Assembly: GCA_963675745.2 (NCBI GenBank)
Contig: CAXXWX010000001.1
Location: 64,001-128,000 of the forward strand
DNA from: Phycisphaerae bacterium
Lineage (GTDB): Bacteria > Planctomycetota > Phycisphaerae > UBA1845 > Fen-1342
Direction: 5' to 3'
DNA length: 64,000 nucleotides
Translations under genes and position numbers: made by a program
The notes under the pieces: generated by a model
The model's database searches: none
Told to the model about the DNA's origin: nothing
What the model saw: the letters and a program-made list of their open reading frames with translations, nothing else
Part shown: positions 1 through 40,062 of the stretch, one piece after another
How the letters are laid out: each line of letters begins with the position of its first letter
Position numbering within the stretch: position 1 is the first letter of the stretch

Positions 1-32
1 CTGGTGATACCGGCGCGGACGATCATCGGGGC

Positions 33-2357
33 GTGGGACTATCGCTGTTTGCGCCGAGCACGCTTACCGCACCGACACCGGCAATGACGCCGCGCGTGGC
101 GGCGGCACAGGATGTTAGCGTAAGCGACGTATACCCGTTGATTCCACCGGTGTACGACCCTCTGTTCGTGCGTGGTCCCGTTGAACCAAGTCCGCCGTCG
201 CGTGGCCCGGACTTCGGCTTCCTGGGAATAGCGGCCACCGGCTGGAATCCGCCTGATCCGGATCTGGCCGCCGGGCCCGATCACGTAGTGCTGGTCGTCA
301 ACGGCGAACTGCACGTCTATACGCACGACGGCACCAGCACATTCAGTCAGGTCATCGCCGGCGCCGGCGGTTTCTGGGGCGCGCAGGGCGCGGGCTCTTT
401 TGTTTTCGATCCAATCGCCGTCTATGACCCGCACGCGCAGCGTTTTATCGTGGCCGCCGGCGAACTCTGGAACGACTATGCCAACAGCGCCATCTGTCTG
501 GCTGTTTCGCAGACCTCCGATCCGGGTGACGGTTGGCACAAGTACCGCTGGGAAGTCACCAGCGAAGGCGGCTTCCTCGACTTTCCAAACCTGGGCGTGG
601 GGCCGGATGCGATTTACGTCGCCAACGACTTCTTCAACACGCCGACGGGGAACTTCATCTGGGTGATTCCCAAGGCCGAGACGCTCGTCGGAGACCCCGT
701 GACACCGACGCCCGTGCGGACTTCAACCGGGGCGCGATCGCTCGGCGCGGTGAAAACCTACGATCCAAACGCGCCGGCGCAGTACTTCCTTACCGCGTAC
801 AGCGGCTACAGCAATCGCCTGGCCATGGAGGCCATCACCGATCCGTTGGGCACACCGACGCTGCACAGCTACAGCCTGGTGGTTCCGTCCTTTGCCCAGC
901 CTCCAGACGCGGCCCAGCTCGGCACGTCGAACCTCGCCGACACGATCGACTTCCGCATCAAGAACGGCGTGTACCGCAACGGCTCATTGTGGGCGGTCCA
1001 TACCATCGGTGAGGATAACACGGCGCGCGTGCGCTGGTATGAGATCGTAATGAACGGCTGGCCGCTGAGTGGGCAGAGTCCGGTGGTCGTGCAGGGCGGC
1101 ACGCTCGATTACGGCACCGGCGAGCACACCTGGATGCCCGACATTCACGTTGATGATTTCGGCGACGCCCTGATCTGCTTCAGCCGCTCGTCCTCCAGTC
1201 AATACATCTCCGTGGAACGTGTCATACGCCTGGCCGGCGATCCGATCAGCACCCTGCGCGATCCCGTGCTGATGCAGGAGAGCACCGCACCGGAGACCGG
1301 TGACCGCTGGGGCGACTATTCCGGCGTGGATGAAGATGCCGACGACCCGGGCGTGTTCTGGACGCACAACGAGTATCGCGCGTCGTCCTGGCGAACCTGG
1401 GTCGGCCGGGTTGACGTCGGCGTTGATCCCAATGACTGCAACAACAACGGCGTCCCGGACAGCGTGGACATATCCACCGGCACCAGCCAGGACTGCAATG
1501 GCAACGGCGTGCCCGATGAGTGCGACCTCGACGACGGCACCAGCGGCGACTGCGACGGGAATGGTGTGCCGGATGAGTGTGACCCGGACTGCAATGCAAA
1601 CGCCGTCGTTGACGCGTGTGAGATCGCCGCGGCCGGCGGCCTGGCCGGCGCATACTATGACACGATCGATTTTTCCGGGACACCGATCGGCCGCGTTGAC
1701 GGCACCGTCAATTTCTTCTGGGGAACCAGCGGCCCGATGAGCGGCTTTGACAGCGACACGTTCAGCATTCGCTGGAGCGGTCATGTGTTGACGCCGGCCA
1801 TCGACGGCACGTATACGTTCTTCACGAACACTGACGACGGGGTCCGCCTGTGGGTTGATGACGTGCTCATCATTGACAAGTGGGTTGATCAGGGATCGAC
1901 CGAGTGGTCCGGCACGATCGAGCTCACCGGCGACGCCGCGTACGCGATTGTGATGGAATACTACGAGAACGGCGGGGATGCGCGCGCCGAGCTGCGCTGG
2001 CAACCGCCCGGTGACGCCAAGGTCATCATCCCCGAGACCAGCCTTGCGCCCGCGTTGGACTGCAACGAGAACAGCATCCCCGACGAGTGCGATATCGCCG
2101 GCGGTACCAGCACCGACAATGATGGCAACGGCATACCCGACGAGTGCGAAACGGTCGAATACGCGCTCGGCGATATGAACTGCGACGGCGCCATCAACAA
2201 CGGTGACATTGACCCATTCGTACTCGCGATCACCCAGCCAGGGCAATACCCGGTCGATTACCCGGATTGCGACATCAACAACGCCGACTGTAACCAGGAC
2301 AGCTTTGTGAATAACGGCGACATCGACGCATTTCTGGCGCTGCTGACCGGCGGTTGA
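33..2357 (+). CDS. Secreted multidomain protein: N-terminal beta-rich domain, DCNxNGVPDxCD Ca-binding repeats, PA14 domain, C-terminal dockerin-like tail; start uncertain, possibly 5'-partial
   Basis: PA14-like motifs (DTFSIRWSG, TDDGVRLWVDD, MEYYENGGDA); repeated DCNGNGVPDECD; tail GDMNCDGAINNGDIDPFV...NADCNQDSFVNNGDIDAFLALL; frame open to the window edge. Confidence 0.8.
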   Translation: MGLSLFAPSTLTAPTPAMTPRVAAAQDVSVSDVYPLIPPVYDPLFVRGPVEPSPPSRGPDFGFLGIAATGWNPPDPDLAAGPDHVVLVVNGELHVYTHDGTSTFSQVIAGAGGFWGAQGAGSFVFDPIAVYDPHAQRFIVAAGELWNDYANSAICLAVSQTSDPGDGWHKYRWEVTSEGGFLDFPNLGVGPDAIYVANDFFNTPTGNFIWVIPKAETLVGDPVTPTPVRTSTGARSLGAVKTYDPNAPAQYFLTAYSGYSNRLAMEAITDPLGTPTLHSYSLVVPSFAQPPDAAQLGTSNLADTIDFRIKNGVYRNGSLWAVHTIGEDNTARVRWYEIVMNGWPLSGQSPVVVQGGTLDYGTGEHTWMPDIHVDDFGDALICFSRSSSSQYISVERVIRLAGDPISTLRDPVLMQESTAPETGDRWGDYSGVDEDADDPGVFWTHNEYRASSWRTWVGRVDVGVDPNDCNNNGVPDSVDISTGTSQDCNGNGVPDECDLDDGTSGDCDGNGVPDECDPDCNANAVVDACEIAAAGGLAGAYYDTIDFSGTPIGRVDGTVNFFWGTSGPMSGFDSDTFSIRWSGHVLTPAIDGTYTFFTNTDDGVRLWVDDVLIIDKWVDQGSTEWSGTIELTGDAAYAIVMEYYENGGDARAELRWQPPGDAKVIIPETSLAPALDCNENSIPDECDIAGGTSTDNDGNGIPDECETVEYALGDMNCDGAINNGDIDPFVLAITQPGQYPVDYPDCDINNADCNQDSFVNNGDIDAFLALLTGG

Positions 2358-2390
2358 TATGACGCCAACAGCCACCTGAACACCACGCAA

Positions 2391-2434
2391 GCGCGCCCGG
2401 CAAACTGCTCTTTAAGAGAGCTTGCCGGGCGCGC
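2391..2434 (+). terminator. GC-rich hairpin after the PA14/dockerin gene
   Basis: 13-bp perfect stem gcgcgcccggcaa / ttgccgggcgcgc; no clear U-tract. Confidence 0.45.
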
Positions 2435-2566
2435 CGGCGTGGGATGACCGCATCCTGTCGGCCGTCCCCCCATCAACCCAGCATGTTCGTGATCTTCGCA
2501 TGCGCTGATCGCCGGTTAGGCGCCCAACATGCGCTGTATGATCAGGTGTGTTGAATAAGGGAGCAG

Positions 2567-4108
2567 ATGATGACGCTCAGTCGCAAGCTGATCCTGAGGA
2601 CCGTGGCCCTGGTGCTCGGTTTGGGCCTCCTCGGAACAACATCGCTCTGGGGGTTGCTGGGCTTGCGCGCCAACGTTGACCAGGCGCGCGAGGAGTATCG
2701 CGAACTTCGTCTCATCCAGGGGGTGGACCGACGTGCCGCGGCGGCTCGCGGATTGCTCGCCGCTGAAACGCCGCAGCGGCAAGACGTCGTCGCTGAACTT
2801 CGGACGGCCCTGCTCCCGCTTGAGGAATTTATGGCGTTCCAGCAGACGCAGGGCGACCGAATCCCGGCACATCAGCTACGCGAGAATGACGCCGCTGACG
2901 CGGCCCGCCGACGACTGGTCGACGTACTCGCGGAGATTCAGGCCGAGTCGGTCGGCGAGATGATCGACGCCCAAACCGCCGCACGGGCCGCGCGCGTCCT
3001 TGGCGATGTTGCCAATGACCTGGCGGGTCTGGCTGACGCGATGGATTACACAATCGCCGCGGCGCAGCAGGACGCCACGACGAAACTGCGCACAGCCACC
3101 ATTCTGATGATCTCCGTCACGGCTGGTATCGTGGTGGCGGCGGCGGCCATCGCGTTCGCGCAGTATCGCAGCATCATGCGCCCGCTCCGGACTCTGCGCC
3201 ACGGCGTGCGGCGGATTGCACGGGGGAGTTTCGACGAACGCCTGGAGGTCTTTGCCGATCTGGAATTCAGGGAGCTGGCCGACGACTTTAACCGGATGGC
3301 GGTGCGACTGGACGAGCTTTACCGCGATCTCGATGAGAAGGTCCGCAGCAAGAGCAAGGAGCTGGTGCGCTCCGAGCGTCTGGCGAGCGTCGGCTTCCTC
3401 GCCGCGGGCGTGGCACACGAGATAAACAACCCACTGAACATCATCTCCGGCCACGCCGAACTGTCGCTGAAGCACTTGCGGCAGACCGGCACCACCGATG
3501 AACAAAGTCGCGACTCGGCCGACAGTCTCGAGGTCATCCGGGAGGAGGCCTTCAGGTGTAAGGAAATAGTCCAGAAGCTGCTGTCGCTGGCACAGGCCGG
3601 TCCGGACAGGCGTGAGAGCGTCTCGCTGGCGCGTGTGGTTGACGAAGTAGTCTCAATGGTGCGGGGGCTCAGCCAATACCGCGATCGGCGAGTCCATGTT
3701 GATTGGGACAAAACCGCCAATCCGGCCGTTGTGGCCAACGAGGCGGAGTTGAAGCAGGTGCTGCTGAACTTGACGATCAACGCGCTCGAGGCCGTGGAAC
3801 CCGGACGGGGCGAGATCAACATCCAGGGACGCAACGACGACGGCTGGGTCGCGCTGTCCGTTCGTGACAACGGACGCGGCATGACGCCCGATGTCCTTGA
3901 AAACGTATTCGAGCCGTTCTTCACCACACGGCGTGGCGCCGAGCGGCACGGCGTCGGATTGGGGCTATCGATCTCGCATGCGATCATCGAAGCGCATGGC
4001 GGACGGATCACGGCAGCGAGCACCGGCCCCGGCGGCGGAAGCGAGTTCACACTGTTCCTTCCAAGCGCCGGTGCCGACCGCGGTCCAAGTGAGCCAGGGA
4101 ATGCCTAG
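2567..4108 (+). CDS. Sensor histidine kinase (2 TM, periplasmic helical sensor, HAMP, HisKA, HATPase_c)
   Basis: H-box AHEINNPL, N-box LKQVLLNLTINA, G1 DNGRGM, F-box FEPFFTT, G2 GVGLGLSIS; SD-like gggag upstream. Confidence 0.95.
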   Translation: MMTLSRKLILRTVALVLGLGLLGTTSLWGLLGLRANVDQAREEYRELRLIQGVDRRAAAARGLLAAETPQRQDVVAELRTALLPLEEFMAFQQTQGDRIPAHQLRENDAADAARRRLVDVLAEIQAESVGEMIDAQTAARAARVLGDVANDLAGLADAMDYTIAAAQQDATTKLRTATILMISVTAGIVVAAAAIAFAQYRSIMRPLRTLRHGVRRIARGSFDERLEVFADLEFRELADDFNRMAVRLDELYRDLDEKVRSKSKELVRSERLASVGFLAAGVAHEINNPLNIISGHAELSLKHLRQTGTTDEQSRDSADSLEVIREEAFRCKEIVQKLLSLAQAGPDRRESVSLARVVDEVVSMVRGLSQYRDRRVHVDWDKTANPAVVANEAELKQVLLNLTINALEAVEPGRGEINIQGRNDDGWVALSVRDNGRGMTPDVLENVFEPFFTTRRGAERHGVGLGLSISHAIIEAHGGRITAASTGPGGGSEFTLFLPSAGADRGPSEPGNA

Positions 4109-4697
4109 AGCAAACCGGCACATGCATGTTCTCGTCGTCGAAGATGAACCACGCCTGCGCGATGTTCTCACACGCGCAATACCTGACATGGGCTTCAGTG
4201 TGTGTGGCGTGGGGCGTGCCTGCGAAGCGTTGGACACGCTGGACGAACAAAGGGTCGACATTGCGATTCTCGATCTCAATCTTCCTGACATGGACGGCCT
4301 GGAGCTCTTCCAGCTTATTCACGAGCGGTGGCCACAGACGCAGGTCGTGATCCTGACCGGCCACGGCAATCTCGACGCCGCCAGAAAAGCGATCAGGTTG
4401 GATGTGGTGGACTTCTTGTCCAAGCCGGCGTCGCTCGGCGAGCTTGAAGTTGCTCTCGACCGTGCCCGCCGTCGCAGACCGGACACCGCCCCGCCGGTGC
4501 TCGCGGAGGAGGCTCCCGCGGAGCAGCCACCTGCCGCCGCCGCGCGCACCATGCAGGACGTCGAGCGCGAGCATATCCTCGAAGTCCTGGCTCGCAACTC
4601 CGGCAACCGGGCCGCCACGGCTGCCGAGCTCGGCATCAGCGTTCGCACGCTGTACTACCGACTGTCCGAGTACCAGAGATCAGGCCACCTGCGCTAG
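4101..4697 (+). CDS. Response regulator, REC + Fis-type HTH, no sigma54 AAA+ domain (RegA/PrrA-like architecture)
   Basis: VLVVEDE, DLNLPDMDG, TGHG, FLSKP; C-terminal GNRAATAAELGISVRTLYYRL; ATG overlaps the kinase stop. Confidence 0.9.
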   Translation: MPRANRHMHVLVVEDEPRLRDVLTRAIPDMGFSVCGVGRACEALDTLDEQRVDIAILDLNLPDMDGLELFQLIHERWPQTQVVILTGHGNLDAARKAIRLDVVDFLSKPASLGELEVALDRARRRRPDTAPPVLAEEAPAEQPPAAAARTMQDVEREHILEVLARNSGNRAATAAELGISVRTLYYRLSEYQRSGHLR

Positions 4698-4915
4698 TCG
4701 ATACTCGCGCGCGGCCGCGGATACGCGTCGCCACCCACCGCCGCGACGCAAGCGCCAGCACCGGCGGAACCACGGGCGAGCCTGCAAATCCTGCACGTTT
4801 TGTGAAATCGGCGGGCGCTCTACCTACGATACAGGTGAAATCGGAACACGCACCGCAAGTCAACTGCCGGGCGCGCCGCCAAGCTTGCCCGGGAGGGTCG
4901 CGAGGAGAGGCACTC

Positions 4916-6754
4916 ATGAGGCCGATGATACTGCTGGCGTTTGCATCCGTGACCATCTGGACCGCCACCCTGCCGCAGGGCGCATTGTCCGGCTCCGCTC
5001 TTGATGACTCGCCGCACCAGTCGGTTGCGCGGCTGCCGTCAGTACGGGCGGCGCTGGCTCACGCGACGATCGACGAATATCTGGGGCCCGAGACATGTGT
5101 CGCGTGCCACCAGGCCGAAGCGGAAGATGTCTTCCATTCGGTGCACTACCAGCAGAGCGGCCCGACGCCCAATGTGCCCAACATTGCGGGAACCGCGGGC
5201 AAGACCGATCGCGGCTTCAACACGTACTGTGGCACGCCGGTCACCTCCAGCAGAGCGACATGTGCATCATGCCACGTCAGCTATGGCAGATACACGTCAG
5301 CGACGCTCTCCCTCGAACAACTCCACAACATCGACTGCCTGATGTGCCATCAGGACGAGTACAAACGCGTGCCGGCCGGCCCATTTGAGACGGTCGCGGT
5401 CATCGGAAGCGATGGCCAGCCAAGCACCATTCAGGTGCCGGTCGAGGATGAGACCGGCTTTCAGTACATGCCGGACGAAGCCAACATGAGCATTTCGATC
5501 CTGGAGGCGGCGCGAACGGTCCACCCGACCACGCGCGCATCCTGCCTGAGATGCCATGCCGGCGCTTCGGGCAGCGATGGCGGCAAGCGCGGCGATCTCT
5601 CATTCGTTACGGTGGCTCCGCCGGTCTCATCGGACATCCACATGAGCCCGCAAGGGGCGGATCTGACCTGCCAGAACTGTCACCAGTTCCAGGAGCATCG
5701 CGCGCGCGGGCGCGGACTCGACTTGCGGCCAAACGATCGCGCCGAACGGTTTACGTGCGCGTCTTGTCACACCGATCAGCCGCACGGCGATTACGATCCG
5801 CAAGACGGCGCAAGACGCGATACGCACGCGATGCGCGTGGCCTGCCAGTCCTGCCACATTCCCAGCTTCGCGAAGGATGTGAGCACGGAAATGGCCCGCG
5901 ACTGGACAAGCCCGTTCTATTCACCGGCGGCGTGCAGCGGCCAAGGCGGATGGAAGCCAGAGGAAACGCGCCAAAGCGACGTAACGCCAACCTACCGATG
6001 GTTCGACGGGACCAGCGAGGTGTACGTTCTCGGCCAGGTACCCGTGCAGAACGACGCCGGGGAGTATGCCCTGGGCGTGCCGCTCGGCGGTGTGGAAACG
6101 GCCGGCGCGAAGCTCTACCCGATGAAGGAGCACCGGTCCGTATCCGCGCGTCTGGTCTCGCTCGCCGCCGACTTCGACAATGACGGAGGCGTCGGTTTTG
6201 GCGACTACGCGTCACTGGAGGCGTGCATGACCGGCCCGGATCAATTGCTCACCGGAGGTTGCGAACCGTCGGATCTGGACCTCACCGGCGATGTCGATCT
6301 GGCGGACTTTGCCGCGTTTCAACGCTGCTTCGCGGATGGCTGCGGCACGCTGGGCGAGTTGATTCCACATTCCACGTTCGCGTTCTTCACGACCGGGGAT
6401 TTCAACCACGCCGTCGAGGTGGGCATGCAGAACTCTGGAATGCTCGGACAATGGGAGTTGGTTGACGTACACACCTTCCAGACTGTCAATCACGGCGTCG
6501 AGAACGAGGAACAGGCCTTGGATTGCGGCTCATGCCACGCGAGCCTGGGCGGCGGCCCGGTCAGGATGGACCTTCAGGGAGAGCTGGGATACGAGCTGAA
6601 GGGCCCGGCTTCTCAAATCTGCTTCCAGTGCCATGGCGCCGAGGAACAGAAACCATTCAAGACCGTGCACGATATCCACGTAAAGGACAAGCGCTACGAT
6701 TGCTCCTGGTGTCACACGTTCTCGCGACCGGATCGCGGCTTAACGCCTCCGTAG
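4916..6754 (+). CDS. Decaheme c-type cytochrome, octaheme tetrathionate reductase (OTR)-like core plus 2 extra hemes, with internal dockerin-like insertion
   Basis: 10 CxxCH (CVACH, CASCH, CLMCH, CLRCH, CQNCH, CASCH, CQSCH, CGSCH, CFQCH, CSWCH); OTR-type blocks KRGDL, DIHM, VACQSCHIP.FAK, P.Y.WFDG, AKLYPMKEH, NHGV...ALDCGSCH; signal peptide; SD gaggag before ATG 4916. Confidence 0.88.
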   Translation: MRPMILLAFASVTIWTATLPQGALSGSALDDSPHQSVARLPSVRAALAHATIDEYLGPETCVACHQAEAEDVFHSVHYQQSGPTPNVPNIAGTAGKTDRGFNTYCGTPVTSSRATCASCHVSYGRYTSATLSLEQLHNIDCLMCHQDEYKRVPAGPFETVAVIGSDGQPSTIQVPVEDETGFQYMPDEANMSISILEAARTVHPTTRASCLRCHAGASGSDGGKRGDLSFVTVAPPVSSDIHMSPQGADLTCQNCHQFQEHRARGRGLDLRPNDRAERFTCASCHTDQPHGDYDPQDGARRDTHAMRVACQSCHIPSFAKDVSTEMARDWTSPFYSPAACSGQGGWKPEETRQSDVTPTYRWFDGTSEVYVLGQVPVQNDAGEYALGVPLGGVETAGAKLYPMKEHRSVSARLVSLAADFDNDGGVGFGDYASLEACMTGPDQLLTGGCEPSDLDLTGDVDLADFAAFQRCFADGCGTLGELIPHSTFAFFTTGDFNHAVEVGMQNSGMLGQWELVDVHTFQTVNHGVENEEQALDCGSCHASLGGGPVRMDLQGELGYELKGPASQICFQCHGAEEQKPFKTVHDIHVKDKRYDCSWCHTFSRPDRGLTPP

Positions 6755-6886
6755 GCACTCGGCGACTGATTCGCCGGCGCGGCGGAACTCGGGCGTGTGA
6801 GACCATGGGGTCTCATTGACTGGACGTGCTGTCCGGAACGGAAAGAAGCAGCGCATCCGCCGACCCGCCGCACGTGCCCGGTCTCT

Positions 6887-6967
6887 GTGGCGACCGACGC
6901 CCCGGTCGGACGTGGCCGCCATGATCGGGTCCATGGCGACAACGTCCGACGCGGGAATCGGGCGCCA
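6887..6967. repeat. Long imperfect hairpin / inverted REP-like doublet between the convergent cytochrome genes
   Basis: gtcggacgt/acgtccgac and cgccatg/catggcg arms; starts with GTGG; outer tggcg.ccga / tcgg.cgcca. Confidence 0.6.
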
Positions 6968-6986
6968 GTCAAATGCGGGGAATAGG

Positions 6987-9554
6987 TTAACCGCCGCTCA
7001 AGAGAGCCACGAACGGATCGATGTCGGCGTTGTTCACGACGTCATCACCGTTCAGGTCGGCGTTCATTATGTTGCAGTCCGGGAACGCCGCCGCATAGGC
7101 GGCCGGGTCGGTCAACGCCTGCACGAACGGGTCGATGTCGGCGTTGTTCACAATTCCATCACAGTTCATATCGCCGGGGCTTTCCGACGAGGTGAGCGCG
7201 ATTGATGCCGAGCGCATGACCTCCGGCGGGCACTTGCCGTTGTCGTTCCACAGGTCATACATTTCCTGGCCCAGCGTGTTGGTGGTGTTCTCGTCACGCA
7301 GAAACTCGATGAACTCCTTGCTGGTGCTCTGGTAATACAGGGTCACATCGGCCGACGTGGCGCCCGCGGGAATGCTGTAGTACGTGTCATCCCAGTATTG
7401 CCCGTCCGGATAGCTGTAGCCGACGTGGGAGCCGCCGAAGTTGGCGTAGGCGGCATTCGTAAAGCCGCGCGGCGGAATCCGGTTGTCCTTGAACACAGCG
7501 TTATTCAGCGCGAAGTGGAACGACGGCCCCGGCTCAACACCTACCAGCGGCGCGGTGACTTCGTCAAGCCCGGGTTCAATCTCGTAGATCTTGGCTTCGG
7601 CATCGTGGCCCAGCTCGCCCGTCTCCAGATCGTAAGCAGCCGACTCGGAGATCAGCGTCATGCCGGCGTCATAGAACTTTACGTTGATCCAGATACGCCG
7701 GCCTTCCGGATAGCCGGTGGGCAACTTGTGACCGGTTTCGTTGGTCACGGTGACTTGCAGGTCGTCACCGTCCTGTTCCAGATCCAACTGCGCCGCGTTC
7801 TGAAGCATGTACCTGGCGCGCAGAATGCCGGCCTGCAAGGCCGCATCGTTGACTTCTCCTGGATAGAGACCGTTTATCAACCCTGGGTACCAGGTGCTGC
7901 CGCCGGTCATGTCGTGAAGCGGCAAGTCGGTGCGCGTGGGCGGCGTGCCGAAATTGCAGCCTTCGCCGGTGACGTCGTGCATGTGGCAATCCTGGCAGGT
8001 AGCGACGTAATCCTTGTTACCACCGAACTGCGGGGCATAGACGCCTTCGGGCGAGTTATATTCGCTGTTGAACCACTCGCTATAAGTACGCTCGACCGGA
8101 GCGATGGTGTTGGCGGAAAAGTCGGTCGCCGTCGTGTCGAAGGCGTTCGGCACGTAGTGGCCGAGTCCATCCTTCTCGAACGCCGGGTTGCTGACGTCAT
8201 GACAGGTGCCGCACAAGGCCGCTTCGCGGTGGAATGGAGAGACCAGGATGGGGTGCCCGCTGGTGGCATCGACGAAAGGCCCCCGCCTGGCGCCGGTGGG
8301 ATCGATCGTGCCCATGCCGGTGCCGAAGGTGCTGGCCGGGAAGCTGAGTGCTGCGAGGATTGCCGCGTCTTCCGGCGGGTTCGCGCCCGGATCGTAAATC
8401 GGATCAACGAGGCGATGGCAATAGTCACAGGCCACGCCGCTCTCGTCGGTCACCAGCATCTGGCTGCCATCAGTCGGCACCGAGCGGCCCTGCAACCAGC
8501 CGCGCGGCAGGTGGCATCGCAGACAGATATCGCCAGAGTCGGGCGCATCCTGGTTGGCGATGGTCATGTTGGCCATGAAGATCAGGTCACGCGACGCCTG
8601 AGACATCATGCTGCCCTGCCAGTTGTAGTAGGGCTCGACGGCTTCATCGTAGCCGCCGTGGCAGGGCGAGCAGGCCTCGGGCGGGTTCAGAATGCCCGCC
8701 TCCAGCGGCTGTGTGCCCGGCATGTCGAAGTCTCGCAGCGTGGTGGGGGCGAGTCCGCCGGGGGGTGCCTCGACGTTGAAGGCCGCGTCGCTATCATCCT
8801 GACCCTGGTTGAATGCGTTGTCAGTCGCCACCACGCGGAATATCGCCTCGGTGGTGGGCCGGTTGGCCACAAACCAGGTGTAGCTGCCGGTATTGGGCAA
8901 CCCGAAAGCCAATGCGCGGAAGGTCGCGCCGTTGTCGTCCGACGCATAGAGGTCGATCGCGGCGATGCCGCTGGCGTCGCCGGCGGTCCACTGCACCGTT
9001 GTGCCGGCGTTACCCACATACGTCTCGCCGCCGTTCGGGACAATCACCGCGACGGTCGGCGGCGTGGTATCGCTGCCCGTGCTGGGCACGAGGTGGGTCT
9101 GAATCTCGGCAATATCGACGTTGGCCGTGCTGCTCACATTGGCCGGCGTCAGACCCGGGAAAGTCGGCGTATTCGCGTACGTGGTGACGTCGGTCGCCTC
9201 GATGAGCGTACTGAACCCATCACCATCGGGGTCCTCGTTCTCAATCGACTGAACGGCCTGACGCCGCCCGTTGGGGTTACTGGAGAAATTCGGCAACACC
9301 TCCTCCAGGCGTGCCCCGTACGGGTTGCGTGTACCGCCGCCGGTGAAGTCGTAGTGGCAGACGCCGCAGTGGTCCGGTTGGCTTGGTACCGTCCCGATTG
9401 TCGTCGTCTCCGCGTCCGGGTAGACGGCAAAGAACGCATCACGAATGTTGCTGCGGGCCTCCGCGCTGGGAATGCCCACGGCGACACAAAGCACAACCGG
9501 TACCAGAAGCCAGAGCGTGGTATTCGATACGCGAGTGTGGGTGTGAGTGTACAT
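6987..9554 (-). CDS. Hexaheme c-type cytochrome: N-terminal monoheme domain, Ig-like domain, c554/c552-like multiheme core, C-terminal dockerin-like tail
   Basis: 6 CxxCH (CGVCH, CSPCH, CLRCH, CDYCH, CGTCH, CQDCH); signal peptide ending AEA; GHKLPTGYPEGRR motif; tail GDMNCDGIVNNADIDPFV; SD ggagg before ATG 9554. Confidence 0.88.
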   Translation of the reverse strand: MYTHTHTRVSNTTLWLLVPVVLCVAVGIPSAEARSNIRDAFFAVYPDAETTTIGTVPSQPDHCGVCHYDFTGGGTRNPYGARLEEVLPNFSSNPNGRRQAVQSIENEDPDGDGFSTLIEATDVTTYANTPTFPGLTPANVSSTANVDIAEIQTHLVPSTGSDTTPPTVAVIVPNGGETYVGNAGTTVQWTAGDASGIAAIDLYASDDNGATFRALAFGLPNTGSYTWFVANRPTTEAIFRVVATDNAFNQGQDDSDAAFNVEAPPGGLAPTTLRDFDMPGTQPLEAGILNPPEACSPCHGGYDEAVEPYYNWQGSMMSQASRDLIFMANMTIANQDAPDSGDICLRCHLPRGWLQGRSVPTDGSQMLVTDESGVACDYCHRLVDPIYDPGANPPEDAAILAALSFPASTFGTGMGTIDPTGARRGPFVDATSGHPILVSPFHREAALCGTCHDVSNPAFEKDGLGHYVPNAFDTTATDFSANTIAPVERTYSEWFNSEYNSPEGVYAPQFGGNKDYVATCQDCHMHDVTGEGCNFGTPPTRTDLPLHDMTGGSTWYPGLINGLYPGEVNDAALQAGILRARYMLQNAAQLDLEQDGDDLQVTVTNETGHKLPTGYPEGRRIWINVKFYDAGMTLISESAAYDLETGELGHDAEAKIYEIEPGLDEVTAPLVGVEPGPSFHFALNNAVFKDNRIPPRGFTNAAYANFGGSHVGYSYPDGQYWDDTYYSIPAGATSADVTLYYQSTSKEFIEFLRDENTTNTLGQEMYDLWNDNGKCPPEVMRSASIALTSSESPGDMNCDGIVNNADIDPFVQALTDPAAYAAAFPDCNIMNADLNGDDVVNNADIDPFVALLSGG

Positions 9555-37952: not shown

Positions 37953-40062
37953 ATGAGAACACTGGCACTGACCGCGGCAATGCTCATCTGCGCCACGGCG
38001 GCGCGGGCGGATACGGTTCTGGTGGAACCGGTCGGGCAGATTGGTGGGGTGTGCAATGACGTGGCCGTCGTCGGTGATCTGGCCTACATGGGTATCGGCC
38101 CCCGCCTGGTGATTCTGGATGTGTCCGACCGGTCCAATCCGACCTTCCTGGGCCAGTCGGAGGTGCTGCCGGATATTGTCTTCGGCGTAACGGTCTCGGG
38201 CGACTATGCTTACGTGGCGGCTTCCTACGCTGGTCTTCAGGTGATCAACATCTCGGATTCCGCCGCCCCGTTTCAGGTAGGGGCGTACGACACGAGCGCG
38301 GCTGCCTGCGACGTCGTGGTCGTGGGCGACTACGCCTACGTGGCTGATCACTACCGCGGTCTGAAAGTGATCAACATCTCGAATCCGGCCGCCCCATTTC
38401 TGGCCGGCGCTTACGACACGAGCGGGCAGGCCGTCGACGTAGTGGTCTCGGGTAGCCATGCCTACGTGGCTGATTATCACGGCGGTCTTCAGGTGATCAA
38501 CATCTCAAACCCGACTGCCCCGGTTTTGGAGGGTGCATGGGATGACGCAGACGGATCCGCCTCCGGCGTCGCGGTCGCCGGTGACTACGCCTATGTCGCG
38601 TACGGCATTGCCGGTCTTCAGGTGATCAACATCTCAAACCCGGCCACGCCTGTGTGGGTGGGCGCCTGCGATACCAGCGAGTCCGCCAGCGATGTCGCGA
38701 TCGTGGACAATCACGCATTCGTGGCGAGTAACTACTCTGGTCTTCAGGTTGTGGACATCTCAGATCCGGCCGCCCCCGTCCGGGACGGTGGATGGGACAC
38801 AAGTGGGCGTTCAGACGCCGTGGTGGTCTTGGGCGACTACGCCTACGTGGCAGACTACATGGCCGGTTTTCAGATCATCAACATCTCGGTCCCAGCTGCC
38901 CCCGTACAGGAGGGCGCGTACGGCACGTTCCACGTCGGCGCCGTTGCGGTCCTGGGCACGCACGTGCACGTGGCGGGAGGGTATGTCGGTCTTCAGCTCG
39001 TCAACGTCGCGAATCCTGCTGCTCCGTTCGAGGAGGGCAGACTCGACACGAGCGGGAGTGCCTCGGGCCTTGCGGTCTTGGGTGACTACGCCTACGTGGC
39101 GGACTGGGAGGGGGGTCTGCAGGTGATCAATACCGCGAACCCGTCCGCTCCGTTTCGTGCGGGCGGATGCAACATGAGCGGGCGTGCCAGGGGCGTTGCG
39201 GTCGTGGGCGACTACGCCTACGTGGCGGCCTGGGATGCCGGTCTTCAGGTGATCAACATCTCGAACCCGGTCGCCCCTGTCCCGGAAGGCGCGCACGACA
39301 CAAGCGGGTTGGCCAACGCGGTGGCGGTCTCGGGCGATTACGCGTACGTAGCGGATCGCGATGGCGGTCTTCAAGTGATCAACATCTCCAATCCTTCCAG
39401 CCCCACGCTGGCAGGTGCATGCGCCACAAGCGGGTATGCCTACGACGTGGCAGTCTTGGGTGACTACGCCTACGTAACGTGCGGCAACGCCGGTCTTCAG
39501 GTAATCGACATTTCGACCCCCGCCGCTCCGGTCTTGGCCGGCACGTACGAGACGACAGATCCCGCTGCGGGTATTGTCATCTCTGGTGACTGTGCTTACT
39601 TGGGAGTCGGCTCCACCGGTCTTCAGGTGATCAACATCTCGAACCCGGCTGCCCCGCTCCTGGCAGGCGGGCACGACACGAGTGTCGGCAGGCGGCGCCG
39701 TGCGGCGGTGTTGGGCGACCACGCCTACGTCGGCGATGGGGAGGGTGGCTTGGTCATCCTGCACGTCACACCCGACTGCAACGAGAACGGCGTTTCCGAT
39801 AGCGACGACATCGCCGGCGGCGCGAGTACCGACCTTAACGCCAACGGCATCCCGGACGAGTGCGAACGGCTGCTCGGCGACATGAACTGTGACGGGTTGG
39901 GCCAACAACGGCGACATCGACGCGTTTGTCTTCGCCATGTCGTATCCCGAGCAATATCCCGACGAATACCCGGATTGCGACATCATGAACGGCGACATCA
40001 ACGGCGACGGGTGGGTCAATAACGGCGATATCGACGCGTTTGTGGAGTTGCTCGTGCAGTGA
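37953..40062 (+). CDS. Secreted LVIVD-repeat protein (14 repeats) with C-terminal dockerin-like tail; one +1 frameshift at ~39900
   Basis: 14 ~42-aa units GDYAYVA...GLQVINISNP; removing one G at ~39900 restores GDMNCDGLANNGDIDAFV...NGDINGDGWVNNGDIDAFVELL-stop. Confidence 0.85.

Follow-up and report, generated by a model that had tools for sequence, protein, structure and literature searches.

What are dockerin-like modules doing on multiheme cytochromes? The question is raised by one end of a 64,000-nucleotide stretch of DNA from a Phycisphaerae bacterium (contig CAXXWX010000001.1, positions 64,001 to 128,000; hereafter, the window), where five genes lie side by side: a PA14-domain protein (gene 1), a sensor histidine kinase (gene 2), a response regulator (gene 3) and two c-type cytochromes (genes 4 and 5), with a dockerin-like module in genes 1, 4 and 5. 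An earlier interpretation, made without database searches (the sequence-only reading), had suggested a cellulosome-like redox assembly in which the cytochromes may be displayed on a surface scaffold by the same tag as adhesins and hydrolases. The feature is real and unusual: it is a dockerin tagging system that is very large and lineage-specific, with a recognition code that differs between genomes, no matching cohesin found, and three multiheme cytochromes as cargo. On balance, and with considerable reservation, we favour the reading that genes 1, 4 and 5 encode exported dockerin-module proteins and that the modules are address tags docking to a genome-specific partner in the cell envelope.

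The paired motifs on which the sequence-only reading was built are present in all three proteins, as two D-x-[DN]-x-D-G loops with a helix after each. Two sequence flavours of the module can be distinguished, a 'house' flavour in genes 1 and 5 and a second one, flavour A, in gene 4. When each module was searched alone, Pfam Dockerin_1 (PF00404) was its best or second-best match over nearly the whole profile, with 12.4, 13.1 and 16.8 bits for genes 1, 4 and 5, respectively; the hidden Markov model search that had been proposed as a check is, accordingly, positive in rank and coverage, but the scores stay below the gathering cut-off of 22.9 bits. That cut-off is passed by the flavour-A members at loci L004-L011 of this genome (25-36 bits) and by the tails of two gene 5 homologs, P0016 and P0064 (27.0 bits). 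For the NCBIfam model NF041540 (GC-type dockerin domain; cut-off 29 bits), the genome-wide search peaks at 19.1 bits. More sensitive comparisons point in one direction. An alignment of 40 tails of this genome (alignment A1) contains an invariant G-D-x-N-C-D motif plus two invariant cysteines, and the first 16 matches of a profile of 40 tails among the PDB sequences are cellulosomal dockerins (best E 0.0015). The AlphaFold2 model of the house tag computed from alignment A1 (pLDDT 90.3) retrieves dockerin entries in all of the top 25 Foldseek rows, with the weak E-values expected for so small a domain; the best match, 6kgc_B, has a TM score of 0.82 (normalised to the target), a root-mean-square deviation of 1.9 Å, 30% identity and probability 1.00. 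The house tag and flavour A are themselves related in a profile-to-profile comparison (hhalign probability 81.6%, E 1.1e-5). Thus, the second proposed check, that of the fold, comes out as the sequence-only reading had anticipated, the predicted model superposing on solved dockerins in agreement with the PDB profile search, and we regard the house module as a divergent homolog of dockerins that is predicted to share their fold.

The module is far from being confined to the window. The genome was translated in six frames (open reading frames, ORFs, of at least 80 amino acids) and searched with profiles made from tails of the same genome. The modules are far beyond chance: a profile of the gene 1 and gene 5 tails finds 156 house-flavour ORFs at 30-123 bits; in 148 of these, the module lies no more than 8 amino acids from the C-terminus. 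Flavour A, with the consensus GDxDGDGDVD..C..GP..GC..D.D.DGDVD..DF..FQ, is found in 58 ORFs, 44 of them with a C-terminal module. Altogether, 211 ORFs carry either flavour and three carry both, and internal or N-terminal placement is seen for 8 house and 14 flavour-A modules. Of 188 tagged ORFs, 155 appear to be exported when scored by a rough test for signal peptides, compared with 781 of 2299 untagged controls. Export of the tagged proteins is well supported at the level of sequence.

The sampled cargo includes a subtilase and a sortilin/BNR protein, both from the tagged-gene island that adjoins the window on its upstream side, and PA14/adhesin-like proteins, along with many proteins without a Pfam match, and two FGE-sulfatase-like proteins (formylglycine-generating enzyme, FGE, family) that carry a near-N-terminal house dockerin (C15:110779-112215 and C1:248804-250048; L053, L054). 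The expectation that the cytochromes share their tag with adhesins and hydrolases has held up, the tag being present on about 156 other exported proteins, these among them. Among the 22 ORFs with at least three CxxCH motifs, three contain a dockerin module: gene 5 (house, C-terminal), gene 4 and a 9-heme cytochrome (both flavour A, internal). The last of these, located about 40 kb upstream, contains thrombospondin-type repeats and directly precedes the genes for the small and large subunits of a NiFe hydrogenase. Tag enrichment on cytochromes was considered and dropped, since in a rough gene set tags are found on 3 of 21 multiheme genes and on 195 of the 4255 others, a difference that is not significant (one-sided Fisher p = 0.07). 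The window forms the edge of an island of tagged genes that extends upstream, with 14 house-tagged ORFs between C1:20151 and C1:73710. A second redox cluster is found upstream of the window at C1:27292-36249 (L050, L051), around the 9-heme cytochrome and the NiFe hydrogenase, and also includes three house-tagged ORFs, of 340 amino acids, 252 amino acids (with one heme motif) and 495 amino acids.

The house flavour is specific to the lineage. In the family to which the window belongs, 6 of the 11 sampled genomes (this one counted) yield house-flavour matches for 95 or 96 of 96 scored candidates, and in five further genomes 142-150 of 150 scored candidates match; in a sister family, 10 of 10 genomes contain 8-31 matches, and most other families of the order have none. 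The residues at positions 10-11 of the loops differ among these genomes in a regular manner. Here, the pair is NG in 129 (repeat 1) and 122 (repeat 2) of 147 tags, and these positions are nearly fixed, while linker columns vary freely (entropy 2-3 bits). Elsewhere, the pair is VG in 14 of 14 tags of genome G263, and V or I followed by L in 12 and 13 of 14 tags of G169; in samples of 3-4 tags each, it is FF in G141, FG in G183, G215 and G233, GF in G227 and FD in G287. Both repeats shift together across genomes, and five gene 5 orthologs each bear the pair of their own genome. The pair found in the tag of gene 5 itself, NA, is a minority variant (7 and 18 of 147 tags) that may mark a sub-specificity.

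In clostridial dockerins, the S-T pair at these positions is the main cohesin-recognition pair. In the PDB profile search, positions 10-11 of the house tag align with the S-T pair of a Clostridium thermocellum dockerin, the pair that, according to the entry title, is mutated in PDB entry 2CCL. Residues fixed within a genome and different between genomes are what would be expected of a binding module that co-evolves with a genome-specific partner, and the pattern at positions 10-11 points to such a partner.

How the tag is attached to a cytochrome, and what replaces it in relatives, can be followed in the family of gene 5, whose six CxxCH motifs, like the ten of gene 4, are as originally counted. 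A word-indexed search yields 1887 proteins at E <= 0.001; among the best 120 of these, identity is 67-79% (the query's own record aside), six CxxCH motifs are present in 119, and the source names are, with one exception, Phycisphaerae or Planctomycetota metagenome-assembled genomes. An exhaustive search with the body of gene 5 alone reaches 7808 proteins at E <= 0.001 and 972 representative clusters at E <= 1e-30. Within the class, 61 of 301 sampled genomes have a match, with a concentration in the order that includes the window (15 of 18, 12 of 12 and 7 of 12 genomes in three families). The model of the core (519 amino acids; pLDDT 95.8, pTM 0.93) places five CxxCH motifs, invariant in 56 aligned rows, in a helical cap that is followed by an immunoglobulin (Ig)-like beta-sandwich, the arrangement by which the c552/PHC family is recognized. 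The core matches a single clear structural relative, Thermochromatium tepidum cytochrome c552 (5ZE8), in Foldseek (E 1.2e-15) and in VIA-align (Z 24.1, 2.7 Å over 328 residues, 24% identity; next match Z 6.9), and the core profile finds the same protein by sequence (E 5.3e-9), with the motif N-x-x-x-H-x-x-P-T-G included. Judging from the model, gene 5 is a pentaheme cytochrome of the c552/ExtKL type with one extra heme, and its predicted fold class is, at the fold level, that of MccSep/ExtKL. The NCBIfam ExtKL model NF040886 gives gene 5 only 26.6 bits against a cut-off of 250; no invariant non-heme cysteine is seen in the alignment of the gene 5 family (C269 in 30 and C511 in 7 of 56 rows), and gene 5 contains no in-frame TGA. 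The core has five conserved histidines that are candidate distal ligands, and on these counts nothing hints at an open heme coordination site.

The ends of these proteins vary more than the core. Among the 120 close homologs, 51 match the house-tag profile and most of the others, by eye, end in another dockerin flavour; four end in a transmembrane helix with a basic tail, for which no NCBIfam or Pfam model, curated sorting-signal models included, gives a match at E <= 0.01. Of 16 gene 5 orthologs, five have the house flavour (all in tag-rich genomes), eight have other dockerin flavours and three have no module. The distant set consists of 106 representatives in which the core is complete at its C-terminal end, scored with Pfam's own cut-offs: 19 have Por_Secre_tail and/or FlgD_ig, six have Dockerin_1, one has IPTL-CTERM, and about a dozen have almost nothing after the core. 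Por_Secre_tail is the C-terminal domain of the type IX secretion system (T9SS), and a C-terminal FlgD_ig we take to be a T9SS-type domain as well. The combination of hemes and tag thus recurs in relatives, as the sequence-only reading would have it: in 51 of 120 close homologs, in two tails that pass the Dockerin_1 cut-off and in six of the 106 distant proteins. Paralogs of gene 5 that are shorter (about 740-780 amino acids), lack the one-heme N-terminal part and end in a house tag are encoded at G169:C1:434503-436575, G169:C1:1580586-1582661 and G263:C9:6059-8236, so that several cytochromes of the gene 5 family are tagged within one genome.

In gene 4, the module is placed differently. The sequence-only reading had described all modules as tails, which is correct for genes 1 and 5; in gene 4, the module is an insert of about 65 amino acids within the enzyme and is of the other flavour (68-81 bits against the flavour-A profile). 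The enzyme itself is homologous to the octaheme tetrathionate reductase of Shewanella (1SP3; E 8.3e-44, in an alignment that spans most of the enzyme and takes in the heme motifs), although it scores 234.8 bits on TIGR04315, for which the cut-off is 375, and has ten hemes rather than eight; by sequence, it is a decaheme relative of that reductase. Its family consists of decaheme proteins of about 550 amino acids that are scattered over several phyla. The insert is found in 13 of the best 120 homologs, the closest ones, always in the loop between YPMKEHRS and GELIPHSTF, and its sequence flavour varies among the orthologs. It is present in both Phycisphaerae loci of gene 4 that were examined and missing from Anaerolineae and Acidiferrobacterales loci. 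Close relatives of gene 4 occur in 3 of 301 sampled genomes of the class, and the two outside this genome have no insert. In related genomes, paralogs of this tetrathionate-reductase-like cytochrome, at G209:C165:2915-3937 and G221:C40 (L092, L093), each contain one in-frame TGA and may be selenoproteins.

The search of the genome with the Pfam Cohesin profile (PF00963) produced one borderline match, at 25.3 bits against a cut-off of 24.1, in a protein of 789 amino acids (C13:85611-87977) that itself bears a house tag, along with a signal peptide and beta-helix repeats. A profile built from this domain and five relatives has solved cohesins as 21 of its 22 PDB matches (best E 4.4e-6), so that, by sequence, the domain is a true cohesin homolog. 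It is single-copy, with no paralog in the genome and one relative in a large protein database; among 31 genomes of the family, it was detected in 12. A role of this protein as the general receptor of the tag was rejected because the domain is single-copy, has one database relative and was not found in four tag-rich genomes; the cohesin scaffold assumed by the sequence-only reading thus reduces to one homolog that does not accompany the tag in those relatives. A 17.6-bit cohesin match in an ORF of 4887 amino acids was taken as spurious, this being an RHS/He_PIG repeat protein.

The favoured reading, docking to a genome-specific envelope partner, would work as follows. Once the protein has been exported by Sec and any hemes attached, the module would fold around Ca2+ and bind the partner via loop positions 10-11, which determine cohesin specificity in the clostridial case; docking would then keep the cytochromes, along with roughly 200 further proteins, at the outer envelope. 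A surface location is favoured, since homologs from other phyla bear T9SS or IPTL-CTERM sorting tails at the same place. Several observations weigh against this reading. The modules of genes 1, 4 and 5 are all below the Dockerin_1 cut-off, and on NF041540 the gene 5 tail reaches 21 bits over half of the profile, with no match for genes 1 and 4. The PF00963 search of the genome revealed no multi-cohesin scaffoldin, no receptor for the tag was found, and searches for the cohesin-like domain gave no match in four tag-rich genomes (G169, G183, G215 and G227) or in the second genome of the genus. The uniformity of positions 10-11 could stem in part from gene conversion among tags rather than from selection by a partner; furthermore, the tag samples are small (3-4) in six genomes, and the scored rows are those that rank highest against this genome's own profile. 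The tag is also dispensable: three of the gene 5 orthologs lack any module, among them that of G227, whose genome has at least 95 tags. Finally, the characterized pentaheme relatives, MccSep and T. tepidum c552, are periplasmic or soluble, and the position of the 9-heme dockerin cytochrome upstream of the NiFe hydrogenase fits a periplasmic role.

A broader version of docking is possible but must be regarded as tentative: about 5% of the proteome in this lineage, respiratory and hydrogenase-linked cytochromes included, might be plugged via a genus-specific two-residue dockerin code into a non-cohesin receptor. Such cohesin-independent display would amount to an envelope-wide 'planctosome' that carries redox enzymes, hydrolases and adhesins.

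The considerations on MccSep and the hydrogenase lead directly to the next explanation, under which the modules tether proteins to peptidoglycan or to the inner face of the outer membrane and the cytochromes are ordinary periplasmic redox enzymes. MccSep/ExtKL is periplasmic by fractionation, at least as described in the portion of the preprint drawn on here (bioRxiv 10.1101/2025.11.18.688581). Placement of a cytochrome directly upstream of NiFe hydrogenase subunits is a typical periplasmic pairing, and both c-type hemes and the two invariant cysteines of the tag require nothing beyond the periplasm. However, subtilase, PA14, BNR and very long adhesin-like cargo is typical of the cell exterior, and the T9SS-type domains on 19 and the IPTL-CTERM on one of the 106 distant core homologs both target proteins to or beyond the outer membrane. 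A purely periplasmic tether appears rather unlikely.

The original proposal, in which dockerins plug the cytochromes into a surface cohesin scaffold and the adjacent two-component system controls the locus as a unit, now seems improbable. The dockerin homology and predicted fold of the tails, the genuine cohesin homolog found in this genome and in 12 of 31 genomes of the family, and the third dockerin-bearing cytochrome beside a hydrogenase all agree with it. Nevertheless, no protein with several cohesins was found, the distribution of the single cohesin does not follow that of the tag, and the module is present on only 3 of 22 multiheme ORFs, being common to about 200 non-redox proteins. The proposal is further weakened because there is no synteny. 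The kinase and the response regulator are as first described, but the five genes do not behave as a unit: among 16 neighbourhoods (±8 kb) of full-length gene 5 orthologs, none contains a gene 4 homolog and two have a kinase nearby, and when flanking ORFs were clustered, the kinase was the sole recurring neighbour of gene 5 (3 of 17 loci, this one counted). Within 6 kb of L117, a Phycisphaeraceae gene 4 ortholog that has the insert, gene 5 and a two-component system are both missing. On these observations, the idea of an operon or conserved locus of five genes is rejected, and the two-component system probably adjoins gene 4 by position alone or, at best, regulates it locally.

About equally improbable is a sorting signal, that is, a C-terminal module read by an outer-membrane translocon or a processing enzyme in the manner of the T9SS C-terminal domain, with the genome-specific residues matching the machine. 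The location at the extreme C-terminus in 148 of 156 house ORFs, the correspondence in position to the T9SS and IPTL-CTERM signals of homologs and the uniformity of positions 10-11 within each genome are compatible with such a signal, but the 8 house and 14 flavour-A modules that are internal or N-terminal, in gene 4 and the two FGE-sulfatase-like enzymes among others, are hard to fit to a terminal signal, and the predicted fold belongs to a class of binding modules whose mode of action is known. That there is no partner at all, the modules being Ca-dependent stabilizing or spacing elements and orphan dockerins kept uniform by gene conversion, is very improbable: it would explain why the cohesin searches of the genome gave no receptor and has a precedent in the widespread cohesin-less dockerin-like modules (Peer et al. 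2009, as cited in the relevant parts of PMC9012536 and PMC5244752), but it sits poorly with linker columns that are free (2-3 bits) while positions 10-11 are nearly fixed in a genome yet different between genomes, and with the joint change of both repeats.

The coordinates of the genes and modules are collected in Table 1. Some details of the window complete the picture. For gene 1, the sequence-only reading had put the start at position 33; the frame in fact runs off the window, and stop-to-stop it comprises 1292 amino acids and begins upstream, at position 62479 of contig C1. Its PA14 domain (Pfam, 85 bits) covers amino acids 546-679 of the part within the window. By eye, the signal of gene 1 (..LALALHVGC) may be lipoprotein-like. 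For genes 4 and 5, the earlier statement that neither a lipid anchor nor a porin is evident stands, with no lipobox seen in either protein and no porin gene seen beside them. The Cys-rich repeat of gene 1, D-C-N-G-N-G-[IV]-P-D-E-C-[DE], is present there in 3-4 copies (window 1425-1640, plus strand) and is also found directly before several house tags across the genome; no Pfam family matched it at a useful score. A third house-tagged gene of the window, at about 39,880-40,056 (plus strand), has a frameshifted tag, in which one frame reads ..NGIPDECERLLGDMNCDG and the remainder continues in another frame to the stop; this split tag is either an assembly error or a pseudogene. A scan for promoters and terminators gave counts no higher than chance.

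Table 1. Genes and modules at the tagged end of the window (window coordinates)
Feature	Position	Strand	Description
Gene 1	1..2357	+	C-terminal 784 amino acids of a longer protein; Cys-rich CNGNG-V/I-PDEC repeats, PA14, terminal house dockerin tag
House-flavour dockerin module of gene 1	2166..2351	+	Loop positions 10-11 are NG in both repeats; 109 bits against the genome's own tag profile
Gene 2, sensor histidine kinase	2567..4108	+	HAMP, HisKA and HATPase_c domains
Gene 3, response regulator	about 4107..4697	+	Receiver (REC) and Fis-type helix-turn-helix, no AAA+ domain; start approximate, overlaps the kinase stop
Gene 4, decaheme c-type cytochrome	4916..6754	+	612 amino acids; 1SP3 homolog; member of Pfam Cytochrome_cB
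Flavour-A dockerin-like module of gene 4	6170..6331	+	Loop insert between conserved YPMKEHRS and GELIPHSTF
Gene 5, hexaheme c-type cytochrome	6987..9554	-	855 amino acids; signal peptide, one-heme N-terminal part, Big_7 Ig domain, pentaheme core, house dockerin tag
Pentaheme core of gene 5	7206..8762	-	519 amino acids; predicted helical five-heme cap and Ig-like beta-sandwich; T. tepidum cytochrome c552 fold
House-flavour dockerin module of gene 5	6990..7196	-	Loop positions 10-11 are NA in both repeats

Several consequences follow for work beyond this genome. Non-cellulosomal dockerins are widespread, and the literature describes their function as open; the present lineage offers a clean test case. 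With 150-250 near-identical tags per genome, a code at positions 10-11 that changes from genus to genus, and one conserved cytochrome that wears the tag of its host, the partner should be findable. If the tag indeed holds multiheme cytochromes at the envelope, this would be a way to position respiratory proteins that requires neither a lipid anchor nor a porin. Independently of the tag, the very large and unstudied family of gene 5 cytochromes (the 972 representative clusters) is placed, by its predicted fold, in the c552/ExtKL class, which is home to a recently characterized sulfur-reducing enzyme.

Compared with the clostridial type I dockerins (6KGC, 4DH2, 1OHZ/2CCL; PF00404), the modules described here have the same two repeats of a Ca loop and a helix, a similar size of about 65 amino acids, a mostly C-terminal location and secreted carriers, and the lineage-specific residues of the house tag fall at positions 10-11, in alignment with the clostridial S-T pair. 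They differ in that the modules of the window are below the Pfam cut-off, the house tag has two invariant cysteines, and the module of gene 4 is internal. In contrast to clostridial cellulosomes, no co-occurring cohesin or scaffoldin was found here, and the cargo is non-cellulolytic and includes cytochromes. A 'planctosome' has been proposed for freshwater Phycisphaerae (Nemodlikiaceae) by Andrei et al. 2019 (PMC6461901). As far as the relevant part of that article goes, both cases involve modules of the cohesin/dockerin type in Phycisphaerae without a link to cellulose, and the planctosome is proposed to be an envelope-tethered multiprotein complex; that model comprises a few peptidases, an adaptor and a cohesin anchor, whereas here there are about 210 tagged proteins, a residue code, cytochromes and no cohesin that tracks the tag.

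Large non-cellulosomal repertoires are also known from anaerobic methanotrophic (ANME) archaea, in which many dockerin and cohesin proteins are reported (PMC9012536, section 32 and supplement S4) and a role of dockerins in 'MHC adhesion' has been speculated upon (a passage in PMC5244752). These archaea share with the present lineage a large set of non-cellulosomal dockerins together with many multiheme cytochromes, but no fused dockerin-cytochrome is described for them in those parts of the two papers; in the S4 Data of PMC9012536, the occurrences of 'cytochrom' that were checked (19 of 20) are words inside the descriptions of other domains, with no dockerin fusion. More generally, in the portions of the literature found on dockerins with multiheme cytochromes, no such fusion is described, and the corresponding portions of the Phycisphaerae and Planctomycetes literature hold nothing closer.

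For the enzymes, the comparisons are more direct. Gene 4 is homologous to the Shewanella oneidensis octaheme tetrathionate reductase (1SP3; TIGR04315) and differs from it in the ten hemes and the dockerin-like insert. Cytochrome c552 has been grouped with Geobacter ExtKL and the PHC proteins of cable bacteria in one pentaheme cytochrome family, according to the pertinent part of PMC11976967; the core of gene 5 is alike, and gene 5 adds a one-heme N-terminal part, a Big_7 Ig domain and a dockerin. ExtKL, renamed MccSep, is described in the portion of the preprint cited above (bioRxiv 10.1101/2025.11.18.688581) as a periplasmic polysulfide reductase that needs the heme-ligating cysteine C239 and the selenocysteine U325. 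The gene 5 family, in its own alignment, has no conserved non-heme cysteine, and gene 5 has no in-frame TGA. Parallels to the tag are also seen in those tails that occupy the same place after the pentaheme core, namely the T9SS C-terminal domain (Por_Secre_tail), IPTL-CTERM and PEP-CTERM-like tails, each of which, like the house tag, marks a large lineage-specific set of exported proteins. These tags are read by secretion or sortase-like machinery and are usually removed, whereas a dockerin is a reversible, Ca-dependent binder without a transmembrane segment.

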